Source: an uncultured Thermotogae bacterium (lineage in GTDB: Bacteria; Thermotogota; Thermotogae; MWEM01). From it: a DNA stretch of 64,000 nucleotides. The translations under genes were made by a program, and so were the position numbers. Of this stretch, positions 5,487-24,243 are shown in pieces. The notes under the pieces are model-generated. The model saw only the letters and a list, made by a program, of their open reading frames with translations. It made no database searches and was not told the DNA's origin. The DNA is taken from assembly GCA_963667315.1 (NCBI GenBank), contig OY763325.1, positions 363,378 to 427,377 on the forward strand. Direction: 5' to 3'. Position 1 is the stretch's first letter. Each line of letters opens with the position of its first letter.

Positions 5487-5745
5487 TTCTTTCTTTTTTT
5501 AAATCCTCTCATAATGATAGCATATTTTTTGTTCTCTATACCAGACATCGACTTTATTTGGGGGAAAAAGCAAATATGTTGGGAAATTTCAATTTATATT
5601 TACGATACAGACATATTATAAGCCTTTTCTTATGAGATTCTGATTTAAAAAATGATATTATATTAGTATGGTTTGAAAAATATCGGACTATTAGGTAACG
5701 TTGGTGGATTTGTGTCAAATCAATTGTTTTTGTGGAGGTGTAAGC

Positions 5746-6333
5746 ATGAAAAAGATTCTTTTGCTGTTATTGCTGATTGTTATTTTATTCACAGGTTGTA
5801 TCAGGTACATACCGTTCCGAGAGGATTTCTTTACTCTGGAAATCATTAAAGAAGCAAGAGATAGAATTCTTGCCGAAAACCCGGGTGTGGCATTGCAGTT
5901 CTATGAGTTTACTGGTGGGATCAGACCTGAAGATGGAACCGAATATGATGGTATGGTAGCTAGAGGTGCAAAAACAATAGAAGATCTCATTTGGTGGGAA
6001 TTTGTTTTTGCGGCTGATGTAGGCGATACAGCCGTTATCACGAAGATGAATGGAGAATGGGGAACTTCCGAGATTGTAGCTGAACCATGGCTTGAAGATC
6101 AGGTCTATAATCCGGAATATCTCAGAATAGACCTTGATGATGCTGTTGAAATTCTGAAAATCTACCTCTGGGGGGATACGGCACCCTTGGATATCTTTGA
6201 CTTTGTTGTATTCAGACAACCTTTAAATCCAGAAGTAACAGAGCCCTATTACATCTTTACCGTTGCGCCCGGAGAATATGTTTTTGTTGGTGCAATAACC
6301 GGTGGGATAAAAACGGAAAATGATAATCCATAA
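5746..6333 (+). CDS. lipoprotein, unknown function
   Basis: ATG at 5746 with GGAGGTG 7 nt upstream; MKKILLLLLLIVILFTGC signal peptide with lipobox Cys. The ORF-track start at 5701 is probably an N-terminal over-extension. Confidence 0.7.
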   Translation: MKKILLLLLLIVILFTGCIRYIPFREDFFTLEIIKEARDRILAENPGVALQFYEFTGGIRPEDGTEYDGMVARGAKTIEDLIWWEFVFAADVGDTAVITKMNGEWGTSEIVAEPWLEDQVYNPEYLRIDLDDAVEILKIYLWGDTAPLDIFDFVVFRQPLNPEVTEPYYIFTVAPGEYVFVGAITGGIKTENDNP

Positions 6334-6362
6334 AAAAAAGACAGGGTTTTTTACCCTGTCTT
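6331..6362. terminator. intrinsic terminator hairpin (mainly for the minus-strand lysine operon)
   Basis: gacagggt-ttttt-accctgtc stem-loop at 6340-6360, flanked by an A-run at 6332-6339 that gives a U-tract on the minus strand. Confidence 0.6.
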
Positions 6363-7497
6363 ACTTCAACAATTCGTTTAATTTTTCTGTTATTATCCGG
6401 ATCTCTTCAAAAGTGATATTTAAAGCCGGTAATAATCGTATTGTCTTATCTTTGATAACGTTTATCAACAGTCCTGCTTCCAATGCTTTGTCACGTAAAT
6501 GAGGATCTTCGTTAAAAAGTTCTATGGCTATCATTAAACCTTTATGCCGAATTTCTTTAATCTTTGGCACCGGGATTATTGCATCAGCAAAAAACGCACC
6601 TTTTTCAACAATATCGCCTAATAATTGATCAATATGGGTTACAACGACTTCCCCCCCTGCGAGGGAAACGGGGTTCGGCGCAAAAGTAGAACCATGATCG
6701 CCTTGCTGGAATATCTCTTCCGAACCGTTTAAAAAGATCGTTGCTCCCAGAGGCAATCCACCGCCAATAGCTTTTCCGAGTGTTATGATATCCGGGTTGA
6801 GATGATAATGCTGATAAGCATAGAATCTTCCGGTTCTACCGATTCCGGATTGTATTTCATCGATTACGAGTAATATTTCCCTGTCTGATGTTAATCTGTT
6901 GATCGATTCGGAGAGTGCTTCACAGAGGGGGACAACACCACCGGAGCCAAGAATCGGTTCCAGAAAAACTGCGATAATATCATTTTCGTTTTCGGAAAAA
7001 ACGGTTTCAAATGCCGTTCGATCATTAAAGGGTATCCTGATGATATTTTCCAGTAGTGGTTCAAAAGGTTGTCTGAGTTTTTCGAAACCGTTTAATGATA
7101 GAGAACCAAGTGTTCTCCCGTGGAAGGCACTTTCAAATGTAATGATTTTTTTCTTATCTGAAATAGCCATTTTTTTCTTCACAGCTTTTAAAGCCGCTTC
7201 AATTGCTTCAGTTCCCGAATTTGTGAAAAATACCTGTCCCGTTCTGCCTGTGTTTTCAACCAGAATTTTTGCAATGGATTCTGCCTTATCCTGAAAGAAG
7301 AAATTTGATATATGTTCGAATCTTGTCATCTGTAGCTTTTGAGCGGTAAGCACCTCATCGTTTGAATGACCGAGAGCAAGCACACCTATTCCGCTGAATG
7401 TGTCCATATATTTGTTTCCTTTGTCATCCCAGATATAAATGCCCTTAGTTTTTTTTACATTGAAGTCATATTCGTTGTACATTTTCATTCTATACAT
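6361..7497 (-). CDS. class-III PLP aminotransferase (ArgD/DapC-like); by context the N-acyl-diaminopimelate aminotransferase
   Basis: 378 aa with an acetylornithine-aminotransferase-like sequence (GIGVLALGHSNDEV, FFTNSGTEAIEAALK, DEIQSGIGRTGRF, the Lys-containing TLGKAIGGG). Last gene of the asd-dapA-dapB-dapH-lysC cluster. Confidence 0.8.
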   Translation of the reverse strand: MYRMKMYNEYDFNVKKTKGIYIWDDKGNKYMDTFSGIGVLALGHSNDEVLTAQKLQMTRFEHISNFFFQDKAESIAKILVENTGRTGQVFFTNSGTEAIEAALKAVKKKMAISDKKKIITFESAFHGRTLGSLSLNGFEKLRQPFEPLLENIIRIPFNDRTAFETVFSENENDIIAVFLEPILGSGGVVPLCEALSESINRLTSDREILLVIDEIQSGIGRTGRFYAYQHYHLNPDIITLGKAIGGGLPLGATIFLNGSEEIFQQGDHGSTFAPNPVSLAGGEVVVTHIDQLLGDIVEKGAFFADAIIPVPKIKEIRHKGLMIAIELFNEDPHLRDKALEAGLLINVIKDKTIRLLPALNITFEEIRIITEKLNELLK

Positions 7498-8690
7498 AGA
7501 TCGAACTCCTCTGCTAAAAAATCAACCGCGTCTTTGAGATAATTTTCAGCAATCAGTGCAGAAATCTTTATCTCAGAGGTAGTTACCATCCGTATAATGA
7601 TCTCCTTTTTTGAAAGTGCTCTAAAGAACCTTGAGGCAACACCGGATTCAGTTCTCATCCCCAGACCCACAACTGAAATTTTAACATATCCGGGTTGAGT
7701 TTTGATCTGTACACCATCGTATTTCTCAAGCAGTTCCTTATATGTCATTTTAACATCTTTTATCTTATTTTTTATAACGGTAAAAGAAACATCAAATTTA
7801 TCATTGACTTGAATGACAGAAATCATATCAATGTTCATATGATTTTTTGAGGCAATTTCAAAGATGTCATTATGCATCATAGTATTCATTGGCAGACCTG
7901 AAAGCGTTATCTGCGTCTGATCTTTCATGATACTTAATCCCGTTACGACCGGTGCTTCAATATTTTCATCCGTCACAATAGTCCCCCCTTTATCTTCAAA
8001 AGTAGAAGCGCATCGAAGTTTTACGGAAAATTTCTTTGCAATTTCAACGGATCGGCTGTGAAGTACATTTGCCCCGAGTTTTGCCATCTCAAGCATCTCA
8101 TCATAGGTAACAATCTCAAGTTTTCTAGCACTTTTTTTAACCCTTGGATCAAGCGTGAATATTCCGTCATAATCGCTGAATATTTCACAGTCACATTTCA
8201 GAACTGCGGCAAGTGCAACTGCTGATGTATCTGAGCCACCTCTTCCCAATGTTGTAATTTCATTATCTTCGGTTATTCCCTGAAACCCGGTGACAACAAT
8301 AACATCTTTGGAAGACAGGAGGGTTTTGATTTTAAGGCTGTTAATACTCTTTATTTTAGCTGATGAAAAAATAGAATTTGTCTTGATCCCTATTTGAAAA
8401 GCATTTACGGATACGGCAGAAATTCCCATTTTATGTAAAGCCATAGTGACAAGAGAAGCTGAAATCTGTTCGCCAGTCGATACGAGCATATCGAGTTCTC
8501 TTGACACCGGATTTGAATCTATTTCTCTTGCCTTGTCGAGCAGCTCATTCGTGGTATTACCATTTGCCGATACAACAACAGCGAGCTTATACCCGCTTGA
8601 AACTCTTTCAGCGATTCTTTCTGCAACCCGTTTGATTTTTCCGGTATCTGAAAGTGAACTACCACCGTATTTCTGAACGCACAACATCAT
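7485..8690 (-). CDS. lysC: aspartate kinase
   Basis: 401 aa; N-terminal VQKYGGSSL kinase motif and C-terminal ACT-like region; overlaps the neighbouring genes in operon fashion. Confidence 0.9.
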   Translation of the reverse strand: MMLCVQKYGGSSLSDTGKIKRVAERIAERVSSGYKLAVVVSANGNTTNELLDKAREIDSNPVSRELDMLVSTGEQISASLVTMALHKMGISAVSVNAFQIGIKTNSIFSSAKIKSINSLKIKTLLSSKDVIVVTGFQGITEDNEITTLGRGGSDTSAVALAAVLKCDCEIFSDYDGIFTLDPRVKKSARKLEIVTYDEMLEMAKLGANVLHSRSVEIAKKFSVKLRCASTFEDKGGTIVTDENIEAPVVTGLSIMKDQTQITLSGLPMNTMMHNDIFEIASKNHMNIDMISVIQVNDKFDVSFTVIKNKIKDVKMTYKELLEKYDGVQIKTQPGYVKISVVGLGMRTESGVASRFFRALSKKEIIIRMVTTSEIKISALIAENYLKDAVDFLAEEFDLCIE

Positions 8691-8692
8691 TC

Positions 8693-9391
8693 TTATAAGT
8701 CCCTCAACGCCTGAATGACTTGCGTTTTGGATGCGGTTTTATCATCTACATCTTTTATTTTCTTTGCTGGGACCCCCGCATAAACTGTATTTCCCGGTAC
8801 ATCTTCGAGTACGATAGCACCCGCTGCGATTACAGAATTTCTTCCAACCCTTACACCTTCTGCAACAACCGCATTTGCTCCAATCAACACGTTATTTTCT
8901 ATGATAACCGGGTCCGCACTCGGTGGTTCGATGACCCCTGCTAATACACTTCCAGCACCAATATGGCAATTATCTCCAACCTTTGCACGTCCCCCGACGA
9001 CCACATTCATATCAATCATGGTTTTTTCCCCGATTTCCGCTCCAAGGTTAATGACCGCTCCCATCATTATGACTGCACCATCCCCGATTGAAACATACTC
9101 CCTGATGATTGCACCCGGTTCAATTCTGGCGTTATATTGAGTCAGATCTGAAAGTGGGATAGCTGAGTTTCTTCTGTCGTTTTCTACTTTATAGCTGATA
9201 ATCTCGGAAGTATATTCCTCTTTGATCTGATTCCATTCATCAAGTGAGCAGAAGAGGATGCCTGAATCTTCATTACCGAAATAGCCATTTTTTTCAATGA
9301 TCTTTTCATTTATCATTCCTTTGAGAAAAACTTTCACCGGTGTTTGTTTTTCTGATTTTGCGATTAAATTTATCAGTTCATAACTATCCAT
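8693..9391 (-). CDS. dapH: 2,3,4,5-tetrahydropyridine-2,6-dicarboxylate N-acetyltransferase (DapH-type)
   Basis: 232 aa; N-terminal domain followed by left-handed beta-helix hexapeptide repeats ([20 protein letters not shown] ... [13 protein letters not shown] ... [14 protein letters not shown]); sits between dapB and lysC. Confidence 0.85.
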
Positions 9392-10052
9392 TGTCGATTT
9401 CCTCCATTTCCATATGACAGATTTGATCGAATGTATAAAAACCCTGATTGAGACGGATTATTCTTTCAGCGGCAAAACAGGCACCTTCTGCAAACGTTCT
9501 GGGAGAGATGGCCTGATGTTTGATCTCAATCATCTCACCCAAACCGGCGATTAATACTGAGTGTTCACCCGGGATACCTCCTGCTCTGATACTTGAAGTA
9601 GGAACATCAAAATCAAAGCACTCTGCCAGCATCTTTGCCGTTCCGGAGGGTTTGTCTTTTTTAAATCTATGATGTTTTTCGATGATTTCTATATCCCAGT
9701 CAGATATTCTTCCCGACAACCCTTTAATGATCTCTTTCATGATCAATACACCTTTTGAAAAATTTCTGGCGTAAACGACACTCTTTTTCGTTCCATAATC
9801 CTTTAAACGCTGAATATCCTCAATATTCAAAGCGGTTGTTCCCACTACAAGAGAACAGTTAAATTTTTCTGCCATAACCATTGTTTTGTTAAAAGCTTCA
9901 GGAAGTGAAAAATCTATGAGTACTTCAGGCATCCCGATTTCGTCTTCCGTGTTCATGTCACATTTATATACAAGTGTATGGCCTCTTTCTGAACAGACTT
10001 CCTGAATCAATTTACCCATTCGTCCGGAATATCCCATCAAACCATATTTCAT
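9384..10052 (-). CDS. dapB: 4-hydroxy-tetrahydrodipicolinate reductase
   Basis: 222 aa; N-terminal Rossmann motif [14 protein letters not shown]; typical short DapB. Confidence 0.9.
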
Positions 10053-10939
10053 TCTTCATCACCTAATCTTTGCATCTCCAGGTCAATTAAATCTTTTAAT
10101 TCATCCGAGGCTTCCGTTAAAGGCAATCTTAAGACATTTTCGCAATATCCGAGTTTTGAAACGGCATATTTTACAGGAATAGGATTAACATCCTTAAAGA
10201 GAAGAGTCATAAAGTTCAGGTACTTTTTCTGTATTTTTCCAGCTGTCTTAAAATCTCCGTTTAATGACAGCATTATCAACTTATGCATAATATCCGGGAA
10301 GACGTTTGAAAAGACCGATATTACACCATCCCCTCCAAGACTGATTAATGGCAGTGCCTGATCATCGTTACCGGAATATAATCTCAACCCTTCCGGTTTC
10401 ATTGATGCGAGTCTTGTCATCTGAGAGATATCACCGCTGGCTTCTTTTATACCAATGATTTTTCGGCAGTCTTTATAGATTTTTATAACGGTTTCCGGAA
10501 GTAAATTAACACCCGTTCTTGATGGAACGTTATAAAGAATGGAAGGGAGGTTGGTCTTATCATCTATCATTTTAAAATGTCTGAAAAGTCCTTCCTGACT
10601 TGATTTATTATAATATGGTGTGACAAGTAACAAACCATCCGCCCCGAGTGTTTCAGCACTGAGGCTCCATTCAATACATTTTTCCGTATCGTTTGTTCCT
10701 GTCCCGGCAATGACCGGAACCCTTCCGTTAACTGTGTCAACAACTGTTTTGATAATCAAGTCCCTTTCTTTTTCTTTAAAAACGGGCGCTTCACCGGTAG
10801 TGCCAAGAACAATGATTGCGTCAACTTTTTGTCCTATCTGGAACTCACAAAATCGGCTTAAAGCGTCATAATCCACTTCGTTTTTTTCATTTATTCTCCG
10901 CATTGGCGTAATTATTGCGGTACCGACACCTTGAAACAT
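10049..10939 (-). CDS. dapA: 4-hydroxy-tetrahydrodipicolinate synthase
   Basis: 296 aa; GVGTAIITPM N-terminus, GTTGE motif and active-site Lys region (IIGIKEASGD) of the DapA/NAL aldolase family. Confidence 0.9.
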   Translation of the reverse strand: MFQGVGTAIITPMRRINEKNEVDYDALSRFCEFQIGQKVDAIIVLGTTGEAPVFKEKERDLIIKTVVDTVNGRVPVIAGTGTNDTEKCIEWSLSAETLGADGLLLVTPYYNKSSQEGLFRHFKMIDDKTNLPSILYNVPSRTGVNLLPETVIKIYKDCRKIIGIKEASGDISQMTRLASMKPEGLRLYSGNDDQALPLISLGGDGVISVFSNVFPDIMHKLIMLSLNGDFKTAGKIQKKYLNFMTLLFKDVNPIPVKYAVSKLGYCENVLRLPLTEASDELKDLIDLEMQRLGDEE

Positions 10940-10941
10940 GT

Positions 10942-11931
10942 TTATCCACCTCCGTTTATCCTGTGATGTTCCAATAATATTCTGACTGCATTTGTAGCAG
11001 CTCCAACTCTTATGTTATCCGCAACGACCCAAATCATAAAGGTATTTTTATCCATCTTTCTGATTCTGGAGATATATGTAGTATCTGTACCGGCTGCATC
11101 TATGGGGGTTATCAACTCTTCAGAACAAATTACACCCGGTGTTTTTGAGACCTTTTTGATAAAGGTTTCCTTATCGATATCTTCCCTCAATTTGATCAAC
11201 ACTGATTCACCATGAGAATATCTCGTCGCGACTCTTGCTGTAAAGGGATAAACTGTTATAGACTCATCCCTGAAAATCTTTCTCGTTTCATTGACCATCT
11301 TATAATCTTCGTTACTGATTCCGCTATCATCTTCTATCGCCCCGATTAACGGGATGACATTTTCTGCTATTTGTTTTGGGAAAACGGCGTTCTCCTGATA
11401 GATTTCTTTTCCTTTTGCCGATAATTCGTTATCATACACATTCAAGGCCTTTTTCCCAGCTCCCGAAATTGATTGATAGGTTGAAACGACAATCTCGTTT
11501 ATTCCGAATTCACGAAGCCCGTTCAATGCAAGAACCATCTGTATCGTTGAGCAGTTTGGATTTGCGACGATTCCACTGTAGTTTTTCAGAAGATCCCCGT
11601 TTATTTCCGGAACAACAAGCGGGATTTCTTTTAAACTTCTGAAGGCAGAAGAATTATCTATTATTGTATTTCCTACCTTTGCAGCAACCGGTGAAAATCT
11701 TTTGGAAGTTCCACCACCTGCAGAAAATAGCAGATAATCGTATTTTTCCTTCATGACATCATCCGTTAGTTCTTCGACTATATATTCTTTTCCGTTAAAT
11801 TTTAATTTTTCTCCTTTCGATCTGGCGGACGCAAATACTCTCAGTTCCTTTACCGGTACCTTGTATTCCTCCATAACCTTTAACATCATTCTACCTACTT
11901 CTCCAGTAGCTCCTGCAACACCAATTTTCAT
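10942..11931 (-). CDS. asd: aspartate-semialdehyde dehydrogenase
   Basis: 329 aa; MKIGVAGATGEVG NAD-binding N-terminus and the catalytic-Cys region (ANPNCSTIQMV); first gene of the operon, GGAGGTG RBS upstream. Confidence 0.9.
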   Translation of the reverse strand: MKIGVAGATGEVGRMMLKVMEEYKVPVKELRVFASARSKGEKLKFNGKEYIVEELTDDVMKEKYDYLLFSAGGGTSKRFSPVAAKVGNTIIDNSSAFRSLKEIPLVVPEINGDLLKNYSGIVANPNCSTIQMVLALNGLREFGINEIVVSTYQSISGAGKKALNVYDNELSAKGKEIYQENAVFPKQIAENVIPLIGAIEDDSGISNEDYKMVNETRKIFRDESITVYPFTARVATRYSHGESVLIKLREDIDKETFIKKVSKTPGVICSEELITPIDAAGTDTTYISRIRKMDKNTFMIWVVADNIRVGAATNAVRILLEHHRINGGG

Positions 11932-11949
11932 CTGTCCACCTCCGAAAAA

Positions 11950-11980
11950 TTTAATAAAAAAAAGACGCTATTAAGCGTCT
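11950..11980 (-). terminator. riboswitch expression-platform terminator (hairpin AGACGCU-UAAU-AGCGUCU plus U8)
   Basis: On the minus strand: AGACGCTTAATAGCGTCTTTTTTTTATT about 20 nt upstream of the asd RBS. The 5' arm GACGCT is also complementary to AGCGTC in the 3' strand of the aptamer closing helix, giving an alternative antiterminator pairing. Confidence 0.6.
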
Positions 11981-12054
11981 CTGTCTATATAGGTTCTCAA
12001 TCAAGAATCTATCCTGCCTCATTAACGGATACAATTAATCAATCCGAATGAACC

Positions 12055-12225
12055 AATACCAACCGACGCTCCACGAATTTCGTGACAGTAATATGAGTAT
12101 TTCTCATATTCCCAGGAATACATTTCTTTTGGGGGAGATTTGTATCCTTCGGTGATCTCGCCTTTCGATCCGAACGTTCCCCGTTTCATGTTCAGACTTA
12201 CTGATCTCGACCACGCCTCCGATTA
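12055..12225 (-). promoter_or_regulatory. lysine riboswitch (L-box) aptamer in the asd operon leader
   Basis: Minus-strand sequence carries the conserved L-box blocks in the correct order: GGAGGCG ... GAAACGGGGAACG ... CACCGAAGG ... CUGUCACG ... UGGAGCGUC (compare B. subtilis lysC leader AGAGGUGC ... GAAAGGGGAGCG ... GCCGAAG ... CUGUCAAG ... UGGAGGGCU). Confidence 0.75.
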
Positions 12226-12253
12226 TTATATTCAATTTTCAAACGCACCATTC
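12225..12253 (-). promoter_or_regulatory. putative promoter of the riboswitch-asd operon (-10 TATAAT)
   Basis: TATAAT on the minus strand at 12230-12225, a few nt upstream of the riboswitch 5' end; no convincing -35 hexamer. Confidence 0.35.
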
Positions 12254-12529
12254 CCATGGCGACGCATCAGTATAACATGAAATTGTAAAAAAACAAAATG
12301 AATAGTTATTTGTTGAAATGTAAGGTATTTGAAAAGAAAAAAATTTATGACTTGTTTGGAAAAAAATTACAAACTTTATTGAATAATAACAGGATATGAT
12401 TGTAAATAATATCCGAATGAAAAGAAACAATGTTATCATTATAGTAGAGGATCTTTTTTTAAAACTCGTGATATCGTTTTATTCGTTCTCGATTTATAAC
12501 ACTTCTAAATCTATTGGAGGTGAATTATA

Positions 12530-13807
12530 ATGAAGAAGAGTCTCTTAGTGTTCTTGTTGTTGATATTGACGGTCTTTTTTGTTTTCATAATCGTATCCTG
12601 TGCCGGAGGGGTAATCGGGTTTAACCTGACTCAGGCAAAAGCAGCCTTTGTTACCTGGATAGGGAACCAGGCGGGGGTCCCACCGGAGGCAGTTGGTGCT
12701 TATGTCGGAGCTTTTAATGCGGGAGATCTCATTTCATCTGAAAATCCGGCACCTGTTGCGGGAATTTCACCGAGACAGTCTCCTCCCATGACGGAAGCGG
12801 GGTGGCTTTTTTACCTTGATGAGCAGCCCGGAGCATTTTACTCTCATCCCGGTAAAATCTTTGCTGTCGGTCAAAGTGGTCAGATTTTATTCAGTGAAAA
12901 TACGCAAGGGTGGCCAACCATTAATGGGACACCGCCTGATTATGTTTTGGAAAAAGCGAGTACGAGAATTGCCAGTGAAACAAATACAATTACAGTCTAC
13001 AATCCTTCGCATGTGTATGTACCGGTAGGGATCATCAGATGGCCAGGTGTTATTGCCCATTTAATCAGAAGCGGTGCTGTGGTCACAAATGGTTTGACAC
13101 CAACTCAGAGTTTGTACTATGAAGCCTCTCAGGCGCATGATATGATGACGAATGCGATGGAGGACCTTATGGGTGTAACATATGTTCAGGCGGTGGATTA
13201 TCCGGATAATACCCCTACAGATGTGGCAAGTGCCGTCAGCTATCTCGTCAACACGATGAAAGTATCCAATATTACGATGTATTTTATCGCGCATGGAAAT
13301 ATTGAACTGATGAACGTTGGCGGCGTGTATTATTACGCATCGACTCTTAAAGCCCTTATCGATACCTATCCGAATGTTCGATTCAATCTGATTTTTGAAA
13401 CCTGTCATGGTGGAAGCTGGACAGATTATTTCCAGACACTTGGAGCGGCTGGGGTACCGAATGTTGATATGAGTATTTCATCCACATCCAGGACGAAGGG
13501 GGCATACCCGGACTGGGACTACAGTAGTGGCCTGACGGATTACAATGCCGCACAGGATGAATTTGTGGAATTTACGAGCGATTTCATCCTTCAGATGGAA
13601 TACTATACAGCGACAGCCAACTGGCCTACAGTAACCGGATTAACGACGCCCGCTTTGGCGAATAATAAACTGAGACTTTATTATTTATGTTTTACAAATG
13701 CGAGAAACAGGAATTATCCCGTTGCCGGTACACCGTCATCGGATTCCTATGTTTTGACTGAACGTACACCTATCAGTATTCAGGAACCACAGATCTACTA
13801 TCAATGA
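12530..13807 (+). CDS. secreted lipoprotein with a clan-CD (legumain/C13-like) cysteine-peptidase His...Cys motif pair
   Basis: 425 aa; signal peptide with lipobox (IIVSCAGG); YFIAHGN (candidate catalytic His-Gly) and IFETCHGGSWTDYF (candidate catalytic Cys), spaced as in legumain (HG ... E-A-C-E-S-G-S) and caspase-like clan CD; GGAGGTG RBS. Confidence 0.65.
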   Translation: MKKSLLVFLLLILTVFFVFIIVSCAGGVIGFNLTQAKAAFVTWIGNQAGVPPEAVGAYVGAFNAGDLISSENPAPVAGISPRQSPPMTEAGWLFYLDEQPGAFYSHPGKIFAVGQSGQILFSENTQGWPTINGTPPDYVLEKASTRIASETNTITVYNPSHVYVPVGIIRWPGVIAHLIRSGAVVTNGLTPTQSLYYEASQAHDMMTNAMEDLMGVTYVQAVDYPDNTPTDVASAVSYLVNTMKVSNITMYFIAHGNIELMNVGGVYYYASTLKALIDTYPNVRFNLIFETCHGGSWTDYFQTLGAAGVPNVDMSISSTSRTKGAYPDWDYSSGLTDYNAAQDEFVEFTSDFILQMEYYTATANWPTVTGLTTPALANNKLRLYYLCFTNARNRNYPVAGTPSSDSYVLTERTPISIQEPQIYYQ

Positions 13808-13828
13808 TCATGCGATAGATTAAAAAAT

Positions 13829-13875
13829 CCTCCGTATTATCTTATGAATGATACTTACATAATTGAATACGGAGG
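13829..13875 (+). promoter_or_regulatory. 10-bp perfect hairpin whose 3' arm contains the Shine-Dalgarno of the second peptidase gene
   Basis: cctccgtatt (13829-13838) pairs with aatacggagg (13866-13875) across a 27-nt loop; GGAGG at 13871-13875 is the RBS for the ATG at 13884. Confidence 0.4.
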
Positions 13876-13883
13876 TGTTTTAG

Positions 13884-15128
13884 ATGAAAGGTTTAAAAGT
13901 AATGATCGTACTTGTTGTTTTTTCATTGGCGGTAATAATGGTTTCTTGTAGTGGTGGACTTGCAGGTGGCGTTAACATACAATTCGAGCTTGCAAAGCAG
14001 ACGTTCCTTGATTGGGCAGAAGCAGAAGCGGATCCCCACAGTGTGGGGATAGTCATCGGAGAGGTAAAAGCCGGTGATACGGTTGGCTCTGAGACGGTTG
14101 GTGTATTACAGTTGTTATCTTCCGAAAGGGGAACTCAGTTAAAGAAGGATGGTTGGGTATTTTACCTTGATGAGGCTCCGGGAGCCTTTTATTCCCATCC
14201 CGGTAGGATATTGGTTATAGACGGATCCGGTGAGATTTTGCACGAATCGGAAACAAATGGCTGGCCAACGGTTAATGGAGAAACACCAGATGTTATGAAA
14301 CTGTCTTTGAATGAAAGATTTTCAGCTGTACATGCTATCTGGAATCCAAGGAAAATCCTGATTCCGGTCTATACAATGATCAACCCCAATATCATCATGT
14401 ATTTAAGAACGCATGGTGCAGTTGTTGTCCAGGGGCTGACACCAAGTCAGAATCTTTATTCTGAAGCTGGTGATGCACATGATGATATGGTGACCGCTAT
14501 GAATGGATTGATGGGGGTATCAAATGTAACAGCGGTGGATTATCCGAATAATTCGCCATCGGATGTTGAATCTGCTGTTGAAGCGCTTCTAGACTCTTCT
14601 GCTATGATGCAAAATATAACACTTTATTTTATCGCACACGGGAATTATCAATACATGAATATCGGAGGGTATGGCTTTACCGCAGGGATGTTAAAAAATA
14701 TGATGGATGAATACCCTGATATTCACTTCTCGGTTATTATTGAAACCTGTCATGGCGGAAGCTGGACGGATTATTTTGCTGCACTCAGTCCGCAGCAGGC
14801 AAATCTGGATATGTTTATTTCCTCTACAAGTGCCGATAAAAGTGCATATCCTGATTATGACAGTTATTATGGGGTTTCAGATCATAACGGGGCAGAAGAT
14901 CAGCATGTAGAGTTTACAAGTGATTTCATTCTTCAGATGGAATACTATACCGATCCGTCAAACTGGCCAACCGTTACCGGGATGACATATCCAACATTCT
15001 CAAATAATTATTTAAAATTATATTATTTGGCATATAAAAAGGTTATTTCGAATAATCCTTCAGCGAATTCATTGGTTATATTTCAGCGAACACCGCTATT
15101 CTTCCAATCCCCTCAGATTCATTTCTGA
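13884..15128 (+). CDS. paralogous clan-CD (legumain/C13-like) peptidase lipoprotein
   Basis: 414 aa; lipobox IMVSCSGG; shares long blocks with the upstream gene: FYLDEAPGAFYSHPGRI, GWPTVNG, YFIAHGN, ETCHGGSWTDYF, EFTSDFILQMEYYT. Confidence 0.65.
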   Translation: MKGLKVMIVLVVFSLAVIMVSCSGGLAGGVNIQFELAKQTFLDWAEAEADPHSVGIVIGEVKAGDTVGSETVGVLQLLSSERGTQLKKDGWVFYLDEAPGAFYSHPGRILVIDGSGEILHESETNGWPTVNGETPDVMKLSLNERFSAVHAIWNPRKILIPVYTMINPNIIMYLRTHGAVVVQGLTPSQNLYSEAGDAHDDMVTAMNGLMGVSNVTAVDYPNNSPSDVESAVEALLDSSAMMQNITLYFIAHGNYQYMNIGGYGFTAGMLKNMMDEYPDIHFSVIIETCHGGSWTDYFAALSPQQANLDMFISSTSADKSAYPDYDSYYGVSDHNGAEDQHVEFTSDFILQMEYYTDPSNWPTVTGMTYPTFSNNYLKLYYLAYKKVISNNPSANSLVIFQRTPLFFQSPQIHF

Positions 15129-15164
15129 AAATAAAAACGGGCGAATTGCCCGTTTTTATTTTTG
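15128..15164. terminator. bidirectional intrinsic terminator
   Basis: aacgggc-gaatt-gcccgtt hairpin (15136-15154) flanked by an A-run on the left and ttttatttt on the right, between convergent genes. Confidence 0.7.
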
Positions 15165-15181
15165 AATCCATTCACTTTCGC

Positions 15182-15910
15182 TTAATAATAAAGTTTTACC
15201 TTTCGATTTTTTATTTCGTGAGAATATGAATTTTCGGCTGTTTTACGCGTATGAACGATGACATGTTCTCCGTATGTGGTTTCTTTTTTATAATACAGTT
15301 TGATATGTTTGACGATATGTGTGTCGGTAAAGTTTAAAGGAAGAGATTCATAGATCCATAAAGGATATATGGCATTATTGACATGATGATAATAATCAAC
15401 ATCGAATTTTCTGATTTCAAACGCCTTTGAAAAATCACTGTTGTCAACATCAAATGCTTGCGGGTTATTAATTTCAAAAGGGGCTTCCGTTGACGTGACC
15501 CCGTAAAGATCATACATATAGCTTCTTGCTGAGGTCGGTCTGCGTTTTTCAACATTAAAAAGAATCCATTTTGATTTTGCCGAGGTGATCAGTTTATTGT
15601 TTTCATCATAGATTAAAAATTCTCTAAAAGCAATAAAACGATCGATTGCATGTGCAATTGTTTGGACATGGATGTGTTCTCCGTATTTCGGATATCTTTT
15701 GACATCTATTTCCCAATTTAATATAACCCATGCAATGGATTCCTCTTTCAGGATATCTTTTTCCTGTTCATAATATTTACCCGCCAGACGAGCCATTTCA
15801 CTGAAATAATTGATGATACTGACAATGTTTGCCTGGTTTTTATAAAATGTGTCTCTGTAACCCACTCTGAACTTCTCACTCACTTTTTGATTTATAATGA
15901 TCACCTGCAT
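15182..15910 (-). CDS. acyl-ACP thioesterase (tandem hotdog fold)
   Basis: 242 aa; two hotdog-like halves, the second with the D-x-x-H-V-N-N-x-x-Y motif (FDVDYYHHVNNAIYPLW) typical of FatA/FatB-type acyl-ACP thioesterases. Confidence 0.65.
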   Translation of the reverse strand: MQVIIINQKVSEKFRVGYRDTFYKNQANIVSIINYFSEMARLAGKYYEQEKDILKEESIAWVILNWEIDVKRYPKYGEHIHVQTIAHAIDRFIAFREFLIYDENNKLITSAKSKWILFNVEKRRPTSARSYMYDLYGVTSTEAPFEINNPQAFDVDNSDFSKAFEIRKFDVDYYHHVNNAIYPLWIYESLPLNFTDTHIVKHIKLYYKKETTYGEHVIVHTRKTAENSYSHEIKNRKVKLYY

Positions 15911-17147
15911 TTTTAAGTTTAAGAAATGGAAAAGTCAACAAAATTAAAATGGCAAAGAGTATCAGACCGATGCCGATACCGAATTGATCTGCCAGGAAAC
16001 CTATCAATGGTGAAAATAAGGCTATTAAAAGGGTTGTTAATTGAGATTCGATAGACAATCCTGTTGACAACTTCTCTTCAGGAATTATATCACTGATCAG
16101 TGATACGTTTAAAGGCCTTCGCAAATTCTGGATGATAAATATGAGAAGAAACATGATAACAGCCCCTATTTCAAATGAAAGAACATTAAAAATTCCAGCG
16201 AAAAGTATAAAAACTATCCCTGCAATCATCGTCAGGTTTAAGGCATGATGAAGGGTCTTCATTCTTTTCTGAATGAGATACGCATATTTTGAAGAGTAGG
16301 AGGTTAAAAGATAAATGAAGAAATACGTTAACCCCAGAATGAACGCAGTTTTCTTTTCTGAGTTGATCGGGATGAAAAAAGGAATTGAAACGGCAAAGAT
16401 TTCTAGTATTGGCTGAAGGAAATCTTTAGAAGATTTAAAAAAAGCACTGAAGACTGAGGAATTTAAATAGACGCGAAGATATTCGGATTTTCTGAGGTCT
16501 GATAATGGCTTTATAATTTCTTTAAGTGTTGCTCTTTTTGTTCTTTTCCGTATCACATCATCCAATTGGCTTGGATAGGTTAAAAGATTGAACAGATTTA
16601 TAATATACGGCACAATTGCCGCGAGAAAAACGATTCTGTAATTTCCTGTAAAAAACACAAGTGAAGCGGCGATTAAGGAATTTATTGCCGATCCTTTCTG
16701 TGAAAAACTCCTGGTTAATCCATAATATTGGACTTTTGCCGATTCCTTTTTAGTGAGTTTTAAATAACTCAGGATTAACGATTTATGAGTACCTGATCGT
16801 AAGGCTTCTCCAAAACCAAAGAAAATCATTGCAAAGATGTAAAGAACCATGTTCTGTGTAGTGAAGAAAATAATGAAAGAAACGATATAAGCGATCATAG
16901 AGAAAACCATGGTTATTTTTCTTCCAACATAATCCGCTAAAATACCGGTTGGGATTTCTGTCAGATTAGTCGATAATTCTCGGATCATGTATAGGATACC
17001 AATATTTAGAAATGAAAAACCCTGGTCACGGAAGAATAATATCATGAACGGTTCGAAGAACCTCAAATTTTTCAGAAATCCATACAGGGCAAATTTATAA
17101 AACTGTTTATCACGTTCAAATGATTCATTTTTCAAATTTATCACCAC
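15876..17147 (-). CDS. MFS transporter
   Basis: 423 aa, about 12 predicted TM helices; MFS signature in loop 2-3 (GILADYVGRK). Confidence 0.85.
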   Translation of the reverse strand: MVINLKNESFERDKQFYKFALYGFLKNLRFFEPFMILFFRDQGFSFLNIGILYMIRELSTNLTEIPTGILADYVGRKITMVFSMIAYIVSFIIFFTTQNMVLYIFAMIFFGFGEALRSGTHKSLILSYLKLTKKESAKVQYYGLTRSFSQKGSAINSLIAASLVFFTGNYRIVFLAAIVPYIINLFNLLTYPSQLDDVIRKRTKRATLKEIIKPLSDLRKSEYLRVYLNSSVFSAFFKSSKDFLQPILEIFAVSIPFFIPINSEKKTAFILGLTYFFIYLLTSYSSKYAYLIQKRMKTLHHALNLTMIAGIVFILFAGIFNVLSFEIGAVIMFLLIFIIQNLRRPLNVSLISDIIPEEKLSTGLSIESQLTTLLIALFSPLIGFLADQFGIGIGLILFAILILLTFPFLKLKNAGDHYKSKSE

Positions 17148-17256
17148 CTGAAATCAGCAGATGATTATAACATGTTGTGCCCTTATGTTGACAATCCATC
17201 TTGTTTATGATACCATCATATTAATCGATAGTATTCGTATCGAAATTTCTATTTTT

Positions 17257-17466
17257 AAGGAGGGCGATCCCGATATGATTATAATATGTGTGTTTGGACA
17301 TGTTATGTCAGGAATAGATGAAAACTGTATTGGGATAATGCCGTCTGTTTTCATGTAGAAACCGATTTGTTTTAATTATAAATTGTACATAAGGACCACG
17401 GTGTTAAAAATCAGACGACAGTCTGAATTTTTTTTGCGATTATATCGTATACGCCGTGGTCTTTTT
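17257..17466 (+). promoter_or_regulatory. putative leader peptide (27 codons, 17275-17358) plus terminator-like hairpins in the 5' leader of the MFS gene
   Basis: AAGGAGG (17257-17263), then ATG at 17275 encoding MIIICVFGHVMSGIDENCIGIMPSVFM and a stop at 17356. Downstream: tcagac-gaca-gtctga hairpin plus T8 (17411-17436), nested inside an 8-bp outer stem gaccacgg/ccgtggtc (17394-17401 / 17454-17461) followed by a T-run, then the GGAGG RBS of the transporter. Confidence 0.35.
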
Positions 17467-17480
17467 AATTGGAGGAAATA

Positions 17481-18728
17481 ATGAACACGATAAAGAAAAA
17501 GTTAAAGCATAATATTGGGAAAAATTATTTATTCACATTTGTGAAGAGTATTGACTTTACGAGGGGGCTTTGGATGCTTTATCTCGCATTCAGAGGAATG
17601 AGTCTGCTGGAAATTGGGGCACTTGAAGGAATATTTCATATTACATCACTGTTGATGGAAGTGCCGACGGGTGCTGTAGCCGATCTTATGGGGAGGAAAT
17701 TAAGCCGGGTTATGGGAATGATCATCAGTCTTTGTTCCCTTTTCATCCTGATGTTTTCTGATTCATTCTGGCTATTTGCACTTTCTTTTGTTTTTTCAGC
17801 CTTGTCCTATAATTTGGATTCGGGTTCAGGTGAAGCACTGGTTTATGATTCGATGAAGTCTTTGGGGGAAGAGAAAGGGTATACAAAAGTGCTTGGGAGA
17901 AATGAAGCGATCTTCAATATTGCATCCATTTTATCATTATTTATTGGTGGAATGCTTGGAGAAGAAAGTTTTATGCTGGCGTATACATGTTCTGCAGTGG
18001 TTGGGATCATTTCCCTGATTATTTCAACGACTTTCTATGAACCGCCTATTGAAAAAATAGTCAATTCTGAACACTCTTTAAAGAATTTTTTTATTCATAC
18101 CTATAAAAGTTTTAAGACACTCTTCTCGAATGGGGAAGTAGCTTTTCTAACCGTCTTTACAACGATATTTTCCGCTTTTGCGACGGTTATCTTCTTTTAT
18201 ATTCAGAATTATTGGAGAAGCGAAGGTATTAGTGTTTCTCAGGTTGGTATATTTCTGGCCATTGGATCCGGTGTATGTGCATTGAGTACGATAAATATGG
18301 AGAGAATCGAGTCTTTTCTCAGAAAGAGGAAGTGGTCGGTAATTTCAGAATATCCGTTCTTATTCTTCGGCCTGATGATATTTTCAGGGATATTTGGCTT
18401 GGCAATACTTGGGATTTTCAGGAATATCACACTATTATCCTTGATTTTTCTGGTCTTTACAATGGTTGGGGAATCAGGTATGTATGTTATGTTTAACAGT
18501 TTTTTAAATAAGCATATTCCTTCTCATCAGAGAGCAACGATTATCTCGATAGACAGTATGTTGTTTAGTATTTCAATGATCGGTGTTTTTCCCTTTTTTG
18601 GATGGATTGCAGATGCGTTTTCCTTTTATCACGCCTTTATCGTTTTGATTTTTATATCACTTGCATTATTAATTCCATCAGGATTTATCATCAGGAAGTT
18701 TTTGAGAAAAAGAGTTGTCAATGTATAA
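17481..18728 (+). CDS. MFS transporter (paralogue of the divergent upstream MFS gene)
   Basis: ATG at 17481 with GGAGG at 17471-17475 (the ORF-track start at 17469 is TTG); about 12 TM helices; GAVADLMGRK signature. Confidence 0.85.
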   Translation: MNTIKKKLKHNIGKNYLFTFVKSIDFTRGLWMLYLAFRGMSLLEIGALEGIFHITSLLMEVPTGAVADLMGRKLSRVMGMIISLCSLFILMFSDSFWLFALSFVFSALSYNLDSGSGEALVYDSMKSLGEEKGYTKVLGRNEAIFNIASILSLFIGGMLGEESFMLAYTCSAVVGIISLIISTTFYEPPIEKIVNSEHSLKNFFIHTYKSFKTLFSNGEVAFLTVFTTIFSAFATVIFFYIQNYWRSEGISVSQVGIFLAIGSGVCALSTINMERIESFLRKRKWSVISEYPFLFFGLMIFSGIFGLAILGIFRNITLLSLIFLVFTMVGESGMYVMFNSFLNKHIPSHQRATIISIDSMLFSISMIGVFPFFGWIADAFSFYHAFIVLIFISLALLIPSGFIIRKFLRKRVVNV

Positions 18729-18755
18729 TAATATAAACAAATGGAGGTGTAAGGT

Positions 18756-19580
18756 ATGGGGATTAAGATATTTCAGGTTGATGCATTTACGAATGAGTTT
18801 TTCAAAGGGAATCCGGCTGCGGTCTGCGTTCTTGAGAAGGCTTTATCGGAAGAACTTTATCAGAAAATTGCAATGGAGATGAATCTGTCAGAAACAGCTT
18901 TTGTTATTGAAACAGCTGATGAAAACAAATTTAAGTTAAGGTGGTTTACATCGGAATGTGAAGTTGATTTATGCGGTCATGCAACACTATCCGCAGCACA
19001 TTGTCTTTTTGAGAAATTTGGTTTTCAGGGTGAACTCTGTTTTGAAACGAAGAGTGGTGTGCTGAAAGCTCAGGAGCATTATGGCAATATTCAGTTGGAT
19101 TTCCCTGCAAATAAACCGGAGAGCGTTGAACGACCGATTGAGGATATACAGGATGCCTTGAATTGTTCTGATTATTTTGAAGTTTATTACTCAAAGACGA
19201 GTGATTTTCTTTTGCTGCTGTTTGAAAGCGAAGAACAAATAGTCATGTTGAAGCCTGATTTTATGAAGATGAAAGCTCTGGAATTTGATTTAAATGTACA
19301 TGGTCTGATCGTAACGGCAAAAAATAACAGGGAAGCTGAAAATTACGATTTTTGTTCCAGGGTCTTTGTACCGTGGGAAGGAATCAACGAAGATCCGGTA
19401 ACCGGCTCTTCGCATACGCTTCTTGGACCTTTTTGGTCAGAAAGGTTGGGGAAGACTCTTGTTAGAGGTTATCAGGCTTCCTCAAGAGGCGGATATGTTA
19501 ATGTAGAGCATATGGAGAAAGGCAGAGTCACCCTAACCGGTGAAGCTGTAATAATACTGGAGGGAATTTTAAATGTTTAG
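18756..19580 (+). CDS. PhzF-family isomerase-like protein
   Basis: 274 aa; N-terminus IFQVDAFT ... GNPAAV and internal SETAF are hallmarks of the PhzF/YddE family. Confidence 0.8.
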   Translation: MGIKIFQVDAFTNEFFKGNPAAVCVLEKALSEELYQKIAMEMNLSETAFVIETADENKFKLRWFTSECEVDLCGHATLSAAHCLFEKFGFQGELCFETKSGVLKAQEHYGNIQLDFPANKPESVERPIEDIQDALNCSDYFEVYYSKTSDFLLLLFESEEQIVMLKPDFMKMKALEFDLNVHGLIVTAKNNREAENYDFCSRVFVPWEGINEDPVTGSSHTLLGPFWSERLGKTLVRGYQASSRGGYVNVEHMEKGRVTLTGEAVIILEGILNV

Positions 19581-19929
19581 CAATTTGACAATTAATGAGA
19601 AGCACGGTTATGCGATTTTTCCCGCGGATTACGAAATAAAATCCGTCAACGAATTGAATGATCTGTTGGGAAATTGTTATTATAATCATATTGAGAAAGT
19701 TCTAATCAATGAAAATAATCTCAGTGATACGTTCTTTGATCTTAAAACGAAAATTGCGGGAGATTATCTGCAGAAACTGGTTCTTTATCAATTTAAAGCT
19801 GCATTTGTGATTTCAGCGGAGAAAAACACGGGAAGGTTTTCGGAAATGGTACTGGAATCAAACAAAGGTAATCGCATCAATTTCTTTTATACATTTCAAG
19901 ATGCGGTGAATTGGCTGGAAACTATTTAG
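19573..19929 (+). CDS. hypothetical protein (possibly a DUF4180-type small protein, tentative)
   Basis: 118-aa ORF overlapping the PhzF stop by 8 nt (translational coupling); no motif I can name with confidence. Confidence 0.55.
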   Translation: MFSNLTINEKHGYAIFPADYEIKSVNELNDLLGNCYYNHIEKVLINENNLSDTFFDLKTKIAGDYLQKLVLYQFKAAFVISAEKNTGRFSEMVLESNKGNRINFFYTFQDAVNWLETI

Positions 19930-19933
19930 TGAA

Positions 19934-19969
19934 TAAAAAAAGGATGAATCTTATGATTCATCCTTTTTT
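19934..19969. terminator. bidirectional intrinsic terminator
   Basis: aggatgaatc-ttat-gattcatcct hairpin with an A7 run on the left and T7 on the right, between the + strand gene and the minus-strand tRNA cluster. Confidence 0.75.
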
Positions 19970-20044
19970 TGGAGCGGAAGACGGGATTCGAACCCGCGAC
20001 CCTCTGCTTGGCAAGCAGATGCTCTACCACTGAGCCACATCCGC
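19970..20044 (-). tRNA. tRNA-Gly (anticodon GCC), CCA encoded
   Basis: Minus-strand sequence GCGGATGTGGCTCAGTGGTAGAGCATCTGCTTGCCAAGCAGAGGGTCGCGGGTTCGAATCCCGTCTTCCGCTCCA; cloverleaf foldable by hand; anticodon loop UUGCCAA. Confidence 0.9.
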
Positions 20045-20053
20045 AGAAAACTG

Positions 20054-20137
20054 TGCGAGTGATGGGAGTTGAACCCATACGAGATCATTCTCACTGAATT
20101 CTAAGTCCAGCGCGTCTGCCAATTCCGCCACACTCGC
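20054..20137 (-). tRNA. tRNA-Leu (anticodon UAG), CCA not encoded
   Basis: 84-nt minus-strand sequence GCGAGTGTGGCGGAATTGGCAGACGCGCTGGACTTAGAATTCAG ... TGGGTTCAACTCCCATCACTCGCA; long variable arm; anticodon loop CUUAGAA; perfect 7-bp acceptor stem. Confidence 0.85.
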
Positions 20138-20155
20138 GCTTCCCAAAACTCTGAA

Positions 20156-20231
20156 TGGTGAGCCGCGAGGGACTTGAACCCTCGGCCCCATGATTAAAAG
20201 TCATGTGCTCTACCGACTGAGCTAGCAGCTC
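20156..20231 (-). tRNA. tRNA-Lys (anticodon UUU), CCA encoded
   Basis: Minus-strand sequence GAGCTGCTAGCTCAGTCGGTAGAGCACATGACTTTTAATCATGGGGCCGAGGGTTCAAGTCCCTCGCGGCTCACCA; anticodon loop CUUUUAA. Confidence 0.9.
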
Positions 20232-20338
20232 TCCCGCTTCGGAAACTCTCTTCCCTCCCGAAGCGAAATGATTCTAACATACTTTTTCAGAAAATGCAAG
20301 TCTAAATAAGACAATTATGAAAACAAATCTATATAATT

Positions 20339-21151
20339 TTATGAAAATGGAATGGTTTTCTCCATAATGACCTTTATATTCTCCACAAGAAGCGATTGCA
20401 TCTTACGATCTCTGAAATTTTTATCCTGACCAAGTGCTTCAACGATGTTTTCGGGATGGTTTACAAATTCCTTTATAGCGATTGTTTTCTGAAGATATGA
20501 CAGCATCCTATCGATTTCAAGTTTGTTGCAAACTTTACCATGTCCGGTTATGAACCATTTTGCCTTTTCTCTCTTTAACTGCTTTAATATTTTTATCCAT
20601 TTTTCAATATTGCTGTCTACGACAATTTCCGGGTGATATTCGCTGACCAGTAAATCGCCAAGAATGACAATCTTTCTTTCAGGTATTCTTACAATTGTAG
20701 AATCCGGTGTATGTCCACCAACCAATTCAAATTCAATTTTCAGATTACCGAGTATGAGAGTGTGTTCCTTTTTAAAAGTCATGGCAGGGTGTACGATCTT
20801 TATATCTTCTTCAATTAATGCCCCATCTTTCATGATGACCTGGTCGATATAATCATGATTCATCATGGAAAGATAATTTTCTGTTTTTTCTGATGCGATT
20901 AAAGGGGCATTGATTCCTGAATTACCGAATGAATGATCGGGATGATAATGTGTGTTTGTCATCATGATCACTTCAGATTTCATTAACCGCTTGATATATA
21001 ATACGATTTCGGATGCTTTTGAAGGAAAAAGCGAACTGTCTACCACTAAAGTCCCTTCAGCTGTCGTGATAGTCGTTATATTTGAACCGCCATATGGGTT
21101 ATCAAATACAATAATACCTTTTTCAAGTTCTCTCAATTTGTTCAACTCCAA
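20339..21151 (-). CDS. MBL-fold metallo-hydrolase
   Basis: 270 aa with an HxHxDH zinc motif (THYHPDHSFG) and downstream His/Asp ligands. Confidence 0.8.
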   Translation of the reverse strand: MELNKLRELEKGIIVFDNPYGGSNITTITTAEGTLVVDSSLFPSKASEIVLYIKRLMKSEVIMMTNTHYHPDHSFGNSGINAPLIASEKTENYLSMMNHDYIDQVIMKDGALIEEDIKIVHPAMTFKKEHTLILGNLKIEFELVGGHTPDSTIVRIPERKIVILGDLLVSEYHPEIVVDSNIEKWIKILKQLKREKAKWFITGHGKVCNKLEIDRMLSYLQKTIAIKEFVNHPENIVEALGQDKNFRDRKMQSLLVENIKVIMEKTIPFS

Positions 21152-23727: not shown

Positions 23728-24243
23728 TTATAACATAGATGTACCGTTAAAAAAATGATTATTTTCTGCCCATTCTTTGAATAACATCAGTATTCGTCCT
23801 GTTGCTCCCCAAATAAAAAAATCTTTGAAATCCCAGACAGGTAAAGAGATGAACCTGTTGTTATACGGAAATCGTTTCATGGTCATCTTTGTTTTCATGA
23901 AAGTTTTAAAAGGGATTGTATGAATACTCTCAACCTCGTTCGGATTAATAATAAGATCTCCCGTATCAATGATACCTATAAACGGTAAGATGTTGTGGTC
24001 TGATACATAAGTCAAAACAGGTTGAAGAGAATCGATTATTTTCAAAATATCAGCATTGATTTCCTCTTTTGTTTCTCTTTTAACTGCTTCTATAGGACGC
24101 TCATTCGTTTCAATCTTCCCCCCGGGGAAAGATATCTCACCCGGATGATGTTTCAGGGATCGGCTTCTTTGCGTAAAAAGAATCTCGTATTGATCGTCTT
24201 TCAAAAAGATCGAAACGAGTACAGTTGATGTGATCGACTTCAT
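23728..24243 (-). CDS. NUDIX hydrolase (CoA-pyrophosphatase-like)
   Basis: 171 aa; Nudix box GGKIETNERPIEAVKRETKEEINA (G-x5-E-x7-REUxEExGU pattern). Confidence 0.8.
   Translation of the reverse strand: MKSITSTVLVSIFLKDDQYEILFTQRSRSLKHHPGEISFPGGKIETNERPIEAVKRETKEEINADILKIIDSLQPVLTYVSDHNILPFIGIIDTGDLIINPNEVESIHTIPFKTFMKTKMTMKRFPYNNRFISLPVWDFKDFFIWGATGRILMLFKEWAENNHFFNGTSML

Follow-up and report, generated by a model that had tools for sequence, protein, structure and literature searches.

Much work on cysteine peptidases of family C13 has been done in animals, plants and parasites, where they are known as Asn-specific proteases and also as peptide ligases, the latter being used in protein engineering. 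We know of no bacterial C13 relative that has been characterised, and the literature searched contained no experimental work on any bacterial C13 relative or on a Mesotoga C13 protein. The family is listed as occurring in bacteria (PMC4357240). Legumain owes its specificity for Asn to Arg44 and His45, where helix alpha1 starts, and to Ser216 and Asp231 in loop L5, which together form a zwitterionic S1 pocket (PMC4357240). Metacaspases and gingipains have N-terminal self-inhibitory regions (PMC4357240). Here we analyzed two adjacent genes in a 64,000-nucleotide (nt) stretch of DNA from an uncultured Thermotogae bacterium (assembly GCA_963667315.1, contig OY763325.1, positions 363,378 to 427,377), which we call the window and number from its first letter. 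The products of the two genes, p1 and p2, are probably clan CD cysteine peptidases from a distant, bacterial branch of the legumain/GPI8 family C13, as judged from a predicted fold and from sequence profiles. Both are also likely to be extracytoplasmic lipoproteins, with the lipidation predicted from a lipobox. The main features of the pair are as follows, with protein lengths in amino acids (aa).

12530..13807, + strand: gene 1, encoding p1 (425 aa), with a lipoprotein signal peptide, an N-terminal domain and a C13-like cysteine peptidase domain
13884..15128, + strand: gene 2, encoding p2 (414 aa), a paralogue of p1 with the same architecture; Cys22, His252 (14637-14639) and Cys289 (14748-14750)
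12530..12601, + strand: p1 signal peptide and lipobox (MKK..FIIVSC), predicted lipidation at Cys24, codon 12599-12601
12614..13063, + strand: N-terminal family-specific domain, p1 residues ~29-178 (~150 aa), one helix on an antiparallel sheet
13067..13804, + strand: legumain-like (clan CD, C13-type) peptidase domain, p1 residues ~180-425, placed by fold search and by alignment to legumain
13292..13297, + strand: His255-Gly256 codons of p1, predicted catalytic His, aligned to legumain His148
13403..13405, + strand: Cys292 codon of p1, predicted nucleophile, aligned to legumain Cys189
13505..13588, + strand: acidic signature loop, p1 residues 326-353 (Y-P-D328-W-D330 ... D337-x-N339 ... D343 ... 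E347-F-T-S), candidate S1 pocket and/or Ca2+ site

Fold and family assignment

We obtained an AlphaFold2 model of p1 from a 38-sequence alignment, with a mean predicted local distance difference test score (pLDDT) of 89 and a predicted template modelling score (pTM) of 0.84, in which two domains followed the signal helix. Legumain was the top Foldseek match for this model (E = 2.8e-07), and the model has the predicted caspase-hemoglobinase alpha/beta/alpha fold of clan CD. When the N-terminal domain was modelled separately (pLDDT 87), it gave no clan CD fold matches, indicating that the legumain match was confined to the C-terminal ~245 residues. A first-pass annotation of the window had interpreted the pair as legumain-like peptidases and had named structure prediction as a check. 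The predicted clan CD, legumain-like fold supported that interpretation, as did the profiles and the conservation of the dyad described below.

PF01650 was the sole peptidase family matched by family members, 11 of the 38 doing so at E <= 1, and the Mesotoga member P0038 scored 28.0 bits against the curated cut-off of 22.8. When 1.84 billion representatives were searched exhaustively with the profile, 512 clusters were found at E <= 1e-3. Nine out of ten distant relatives sampled matched PF01650 at E <= 0.01, and P0058 (46.9 bits), P0119 (33.5 bits) and P0060 (29.6 bits) were distant relatives above its threshold. On the other hand, PF00656 (family C14) had no match among the 38 family members or the ten sampled distant relatives. 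Direct alignment of P0058 with human legumain was marginal (E = 0.014).

A profile built from a 47-sequence alignment of close and intermediate homologues was then compared with the sequences of the Protein Data Bank (PDB). Legumain was matched with E = 5e-06, and all matches with E < 1e-4 were legumains. Plant asparaginyl endopeptidases and GPI8 were matched more weakly (E = 0.11-0.4) and metacaspases only at E >= 0.58, so that below E = 0.5 the matches were solely C13 proteins. Comparison of the family alignment with a legumain alignment by hhalign gave E = 2e-05 and a probability of 77 % over residues 243-327, and the global hhalign alignment was unreliable beyond those residues. With a single legumain sequence as the target hhalign was weak (E = 0.024), and it improved after the alignment was broadened. 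The legumain sequence used in the alignments was checked against PDB entries; a database search that started from human legumain yielded vertebrate legumains only, at >= 84 % identity, and little depth was gained for the template profile. The comparison with C13 hidden Markov models (HMMs) proposed in the first-pass annotation had a divided outcome: C13 homology holds at the family and profile level, where members and profiles match, and the Pfam scores of p1 and p2 themselves fall short of the PF01650 threshold.

Two other matches were set aside. Cu_bind_CorA was matched by 2 of the 38 members at a sub-threshold score (18.8 vs a 27-bit cut-off) and was attributed to chance, and TATA-binding protein, the sole match of the first, narrow family profile (E = 0.26), was discarded.

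The two genes encode paralogues, with p1 and p2 being 47 % identical over 421 aa (BLASTP, E = 5e-137). The plus-strand open reading frames of 425 and 414 aa reported at first pass were verified in their coordinates and lengths, and the identical blocks quoted there (FYLDE.PGAFYSHPG, GWPT.NG, YFIAHGN, ETCHGGSWTDYF and VEFTSDFILQMEYYT) were all found in the BLASTP alignment. The residue numbers of p2 were taken from the ungapped block of the same alignment.

Catalytic dyad and substrate pocket

In every alignment with legumain (pairwise, profile and both hhalign alignments), His255 of p1 aligned to His148, Cys292 to Cys189 and Ala325-Tyr326 to Ser216-Tyr217. This was in agreement with the earlier proposal that the HG ... 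ETCHGGS pair is placed like the catalytic His and Cys of legumain. The arrangement is that of clan CD, where a His-Gly comes before the Cys and each follows a hydrophobic beta-strand (YFIAH255G and LIFETC292HGGS in p1); in the model, strands 247-253 and 284-290 precede His255 and Cys292, respectively. His255, Gly256, Cys292 and Gly295 were invariant in both the 38- and the 47-sequence alignments. Conservation extended to the distant representatives, 144 of which were aligned to the family HMM: the His was present in 131/134, the Gly in 128/134 and the Cys in 123/134. An invariant dyad together with an invariant Gly295 and acidic loop is what selection for catalysis would be expected to produce, and p1 and p2 would cut peptide bonds by means of this His-Cys dyad.

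The acidic loop falls in L5, where legumain has Ser216 and Asp231. Five of its residues (D328, D330, D337, D343 and E347) were invariant in the 47 sequences and 94-100 % conserved in the distant representatives, and N339 also lies in the loop. The position of Ser216 was occupied by Ala in p1 and p2 and by Ala or Ser across the wider family. The stretch leading from beta1 to alpha1 had the consensus G-L-T-P-x-Q-N-L-Y-x-E-A, and no conserved Arg, His or Lys was found at positions 188-202, the start of alpha1, in the family alignments. If N-L-Y-x is set against legumain N42-Y-R44-H45 by the register of the helix start, as taken from secondary structure, Arg44 would be replaced by Tyr and His45 by a variable residue. 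The counterpart of Asp231 varied with the method, being E347 in the pairwise alignment and D337 in the global hhalign alignment, and the register was shifted again in the HMM alignment. We favour E347 over D337 because it begins the model helix 347-360, as Asp231 precedes its helix.

The replacement of Arg44, His45 and Ser216 argues that the pocket of p1 and p2 differs from the zwitterionic Asn pocket of legumain, and asparagine is probably not their preferred P1 residue. What the loop most economically suggests is either an acidic pocket that takes a basic P1 residue or a site for Ca2+. Metacaspases, gingipains and clostripain provide the comparison for a basic P1 residue and for Ca2+ dependence (PMC4357240, Table 2).

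Export signals and the N-terminal domain

Both proteins open with a Lys-rich n-region, then a hydrophobic core and FIIVSC24 in p1 or IMVSC22 in p2, and the lipobox Cys was invariant in the 38-homologue alignment, consistent with the lipoprotein signal peptides claimed for the pair at first pass. A PROSITE-like lipobox pattern was matched by 31/38 and 37/47 sequences, and those off the pattern mostly had Asn or Pro at position -2, e.g. L-N-S-C. Among the distant full-length representatives, a hydrophobic N-terminus was found in 100/123 and a lipobox-like motif in 51/123, in support of an extracytoplasmic role across the family. Once exported by Sec and lipidated, p1 and p2 would sit on the outside of the cytoplasmic membrane, beneath the toga.

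The N-terminal domain contained the invariant residues D97, P100, H106 and P129 and the motif LD-x-x-PG-x-x-[FY]-x-HP, and searches of Pfam and PDB sequences found no relative of it. Comparison with PepSY and cystatin-like domains gave marginal scores, and the Pfam PepSY family (PF03413) matched 0/22 members. For distant relatives with lengths of 500-2500 aa, both domains were usually covered by the profile match, and the N-terminal domain sometimes had the higher score. Since it was matched together with the protease domain in distant C13-matching proteins, the domain appears to accompany the protease domain throughout and to be an integral companion of this C13 branch. By analogy with the self-inhibitory N-termini of metacaspases and gingipains, we infer that it is most likely a regulatory, prodomain-like or substrate-positioning module.

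Homologues and gene neighbourhood

A large protein database contained 42 homologues, mostly unnamed; Thermotogota such as Kosmotoga and Mesotoga were the source of the named ones. A precomputed PF01650 match and the name "C13 family peptidase" were attached to one distant homologue. A search of 185,579 species-representative genomes yielded 26 loci, all of them from Thermotogota, in metagenome-assembled genomes (MAGs) of Thermotogaceae or Kosmotogaceae. Orthologues were also present in Mesotoga prima, whose strain MesG1.Ag.4.2 has been genome-sequenced.

Locus L001, which encodes a protein with 78 % identity, was colinear with the window: L001 64-7275 corresponded to window 6641-13807 and L001 7432-13272 to window 15206-21046, at 73-74 % nucleotide identity. 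L001 did not contain window 13808-15205, i.e. gene 2 with its flanks, and had positions 7276-7431 in that place. In a neighbour-joining tree, p2 grouped with P0021 (73 %), P0023 and P0025, while p1 grouped with P0002 and P0003. The separate clades and the lack of gene 2 from the colinear L001 indicate that p1 and p2 are old paralogues rather than products of a recent tandem duplication, gene 2 having apparently been inserted here or lost in the sister lineage.

The number of copies per genome ranged from 1 to at least 4, and several genomes had 3-4 copies at separate loci. Three tandem copies were found in L011 (Thermotogae bacterium ADurb.Bin062, 4352-8858) and two nearby copies in L014 (another MAG, 5067-9436). 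We found no conserved neighbouring genes among loci L027-L030 and the 64-kb window. Larger relatives carried the cell-surface domains GLUG, PKD, TIG, CarboxypepD_reg and VWA beside the C13 match.

In two unrelated loci, a 227-aa DsbD_TM (CcdA-like) protein was encoded 4-5 kb from a homologue (L027 1-1057 and L028 799-1970), and the L027 gene adjoins one for a 425-aa Peptidase_C14 protein, equal in length to p1. The DsbD_TM genes were not adjacent to the homologues, and none was seen in the annotated part of the window. This proximity may be a coincidence, or it may reflect a loose link between thiol-redox genes and those of clan CD proteases that are exported.

Expression signals and surroundings of the gene pair

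Three elements around the two genes may bear on their expression.

12516..12522, + strand: Shine-Dalgarno sequence GGAGGTG of gene 1, read directly, 7 nt upstream of the ATG at 12530
13829..13875, + strand: intergenic hairpin, whose 3' arm holds the Shine-Dalgarno sequence of gene 2
15123..15166: strong intrinsic terminator hairpin set between an A-tract and a T-tract and shared with a convergent gene, folding free energy (dG) -21.6 kcal/mol, z = -6.0, 0/200 shuffles as stable

GGAGGTG was located 6-7 nt ahead of the ATG in both genes, and GC content and GC skew were higher across the genes than in the flanks. The hairpin in the 76-nt spacer has a perfect 10-bp outer stem (CCUCCGUAUU/AAUACGGAGG) and is followed by UGUUUU; its 101-nt context had a dG of -22.1 (z = -2.6). 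By masking the Shine-Dalgarno sequence of gene 2 it could serve as a translational control element, or it could be a weak terminator. The terminator hairpin lies between gene 2 and a convergent gene for an acyl-acyl carrier protein (ACP) thioesterase, and a bidirectional role is plausible given its A- and T-tract flanks and the convergent genes.

A lysine riboswitch was identified at 12056-12229 on the minus strand (Rfam RF00168, 81.7 bits), at the head of a complete divergent lysine biosynthesis operon on that strand (6361-11931); the operon comprises asd, dapA, dapB, a dapH-type acyltransferase gene, lysC (encoding an aspartokinase that carries ACT domains) and the gene for an aminotransferase of class III. 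A terminator-like hairpin at 11961-11982 lies between the riboswitch and asd. Control of the pair by the riboswitch was rejected, as it is on the opposite strand and faces the asd operon. The first-pass annotation had set the pair between the riboswitch and a bidirectional terminator. Both elements exist and bidirectionality is plausible, and the setting needs correction in that the riboswitch serves the minus-strand asd operon and not the pair. The neighbours of the pair in the window were genes for lysine biosynthesis, the acyl-ACP thioesterase and major facilitator superfamily (MFS) proteins.

Elsewhere in the window, positions 1119-5486 (minus strand) encode a hybrid two-component sensor of 1455 aa that combines Reg_prop beta-propeller repeats with Y_Y_Y, HisKA and HATPase_c and with a receiver domain, an architecture typical of the hybrid two-component systems of Bacteroidota. 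Two adjacent open reading frames of 410 and 971 aa at 24240-28384 (minus strand) matched no Pfam family at E <= 1e-5 and are flanked by NUDIX and polyprenyl synthetase genes. Three clustered tRNA genes (Rfam RF00005) were found at 19973-20231 (minus strand), and this region was 93-98 % conserved with L001 in a translated comparison.

Discussion

Several points weigh against reading p1 and p2 as exported peptidases of a bacterial C13 branch. Single-sequence searches of Pfam, NCBIfam and PDB sequences with p1 and p2 gave no significant match, and neither protein matched PF01650 (gathering threshold 22.8 bits) even at E <= 10, so that the C13 link rests on the fold prediction, on intermediate sequences and on profiles. 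The peptidase activity is a prediction. The pocket residues, the role of the N-terminal domain and the alpha1/L5 register were derived from sequence and secondary structure, and the Asp231 counterpart could be either D337 or E347. That the proteins lie beneath the toga is an assumption made from the lipobox.

The resemblance to legumain could reflect nothing beyond the shared clan CD fold, and p1 and p2 might then belong with the metacaspases (C14B) and caspases of family C14 or with the Arg/Lys-specific enzymes gingipain (C25) and clostripain (C11). We consider this quite unlikely, since PF01650 was the sole peptidase match (11/38 members and 9/10 distant relatives), PF00656 was never matched, and legumain at E = 5e-06 compares with metacaspases at E >= 0.58. 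The loss of catalysis is very improbable in our view, even though the Cys position is Ser or another residue in 11/134 distant representatives. Such pseudo-peptidases would act as binding or scaffold lipoproteins, whereas the His-Gly, the Cys, Gly295 and the acidic loop residues were invariant in all 47 close and intermediate homologues.

Another explanation accepts the fold but changes the reaction. p1 and p2 would be transpeptidases or ligases like GPI8 and the plant asparaginyl ligases and would attach or cyclise proteins that are secreted or belong to the envelope, for instance to anchor toga components. Ligase and hydrolase cannot be told apart by reading the family sequences, in which we see no evidence of transpeptidation. 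However, no conserved partner or substrate gene lies beside any homologue in the loci compared, no recognisable sorting-signal system is associated with them, the copy number varies, and many multidomain relatives carry adhesion-type domains, all of which makes a ligase function rather improbable. An anti-phage defence protease of the caspase-like kind (CHAT, Craspase etc.) was also rejected, as there was no PADLOC match, the proteins have lipoprotein signal peptides and the neighbours are metabolic and transport genes.

Taking p1 and p2 as exported peptidases of the C13 branch, their most likely role is to degrade or process proteins of the envelope or outside the cell and not to mature one dedicated partner, although our confidence in the role is much lower than in the enzyme class. 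The lack of a conserved neighbour, a copy number of 1 to at least 4 and the cell-surface domains in larger relatives all point in this direction. An extracellular processing or maturation role had been suggested at first pass; processing is retained here, while maturation of a dedicated partner is disfavoured by the lack of a conserved neighbour.

A bolder scheme, which we think unlikely, would make the N-terminal domain and the acidic loop a new zymogen design in clan CD. A lipid-anchored PepSY/cystatin-like regulator would block the protease until a Ca2+ or substrate cue, the specificity would be for residues other than Asn (possibly Arg/Lys), the enzymes would process toga proteins, and the module would be common to > 500 clusters in several phyla.

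The locus represents a well-defined bacterial C13-like subfamily, of which one genome carries two naturally diverged members. It changes no current concept. Its characterisation would reveal the specificity and regulation of the ancestral bacterial C13 fold and might yield thermotolerant proteases or ligases.

Comparison with known systems

Human legumain (MEROPS C13; PDB 4aw9) has 13 % identity to p1 and p2, which also have a predicted lipid anchor at the N-terminus and an additional N-terminal domain. In the pair, Arg44, His45 and Ser216 of legumain are not conserved, and L5 is longer, with its five invariant acidic residues. The LSAM C-terminal prodomain (PF20985) is found in vertebrate legumains and was not matched by p1 or p2, which end ~75 residues past the L5 helix, with the last strand (421-424) modelled within the catalytic domain. 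By their S1 pocket and the lack of LSAM, both judged from sequence, p1 and p2 fall outside legumain in the strict sense of an asparaginyl endopeptidase. Legumain acts in the acidic lysosome or vacuole, whereas the host of p1 and p2 is bacterial and their surroundings are probably at neutral pH.

GPI8/PIGK, of the glycosylphosphatidylinositol (GPI) transamidase, and the plant peptide asparaginyl ligases share the predicted fold and the dyad of p1 and p2 and are membrane-associated C13 enzymes that act on exported proteins. In contrast to p1 and p2 these come from eukaryotes, GPI8 is part of a complex of five subunits, and their sequence similarity to p1 and p2 is below that of legumain. For the N-terminal domain, the nearest comparison is with the PepSY/cystatin-like propeptide domains (propeptides of M4 and M36 proteases, YpeB and YpmB), which do not have its invariant D..PG..[FY].HP motif.

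The same family includes the "C13 family peptidase" entries of Mesotoga (WP_014731369 / UniProt I2F6L4 and WP_006488205; P0038 and P0051 in our alignments), which have 413-414 aa with a lipobox, the N-terminal domain and the protease domain. These are ~37-40 % identical to p1, fall in a different clade and reach the Pfam C13 threshold, whereas p1 and p2 stay below it, and their C13 label comes from automatic annotation. Proteins of this kind are thus already labelled in databases, and what appears to set the variant apart is its lipid anchor, its new N-terminal domain, its altered pocket and its acidic loop.

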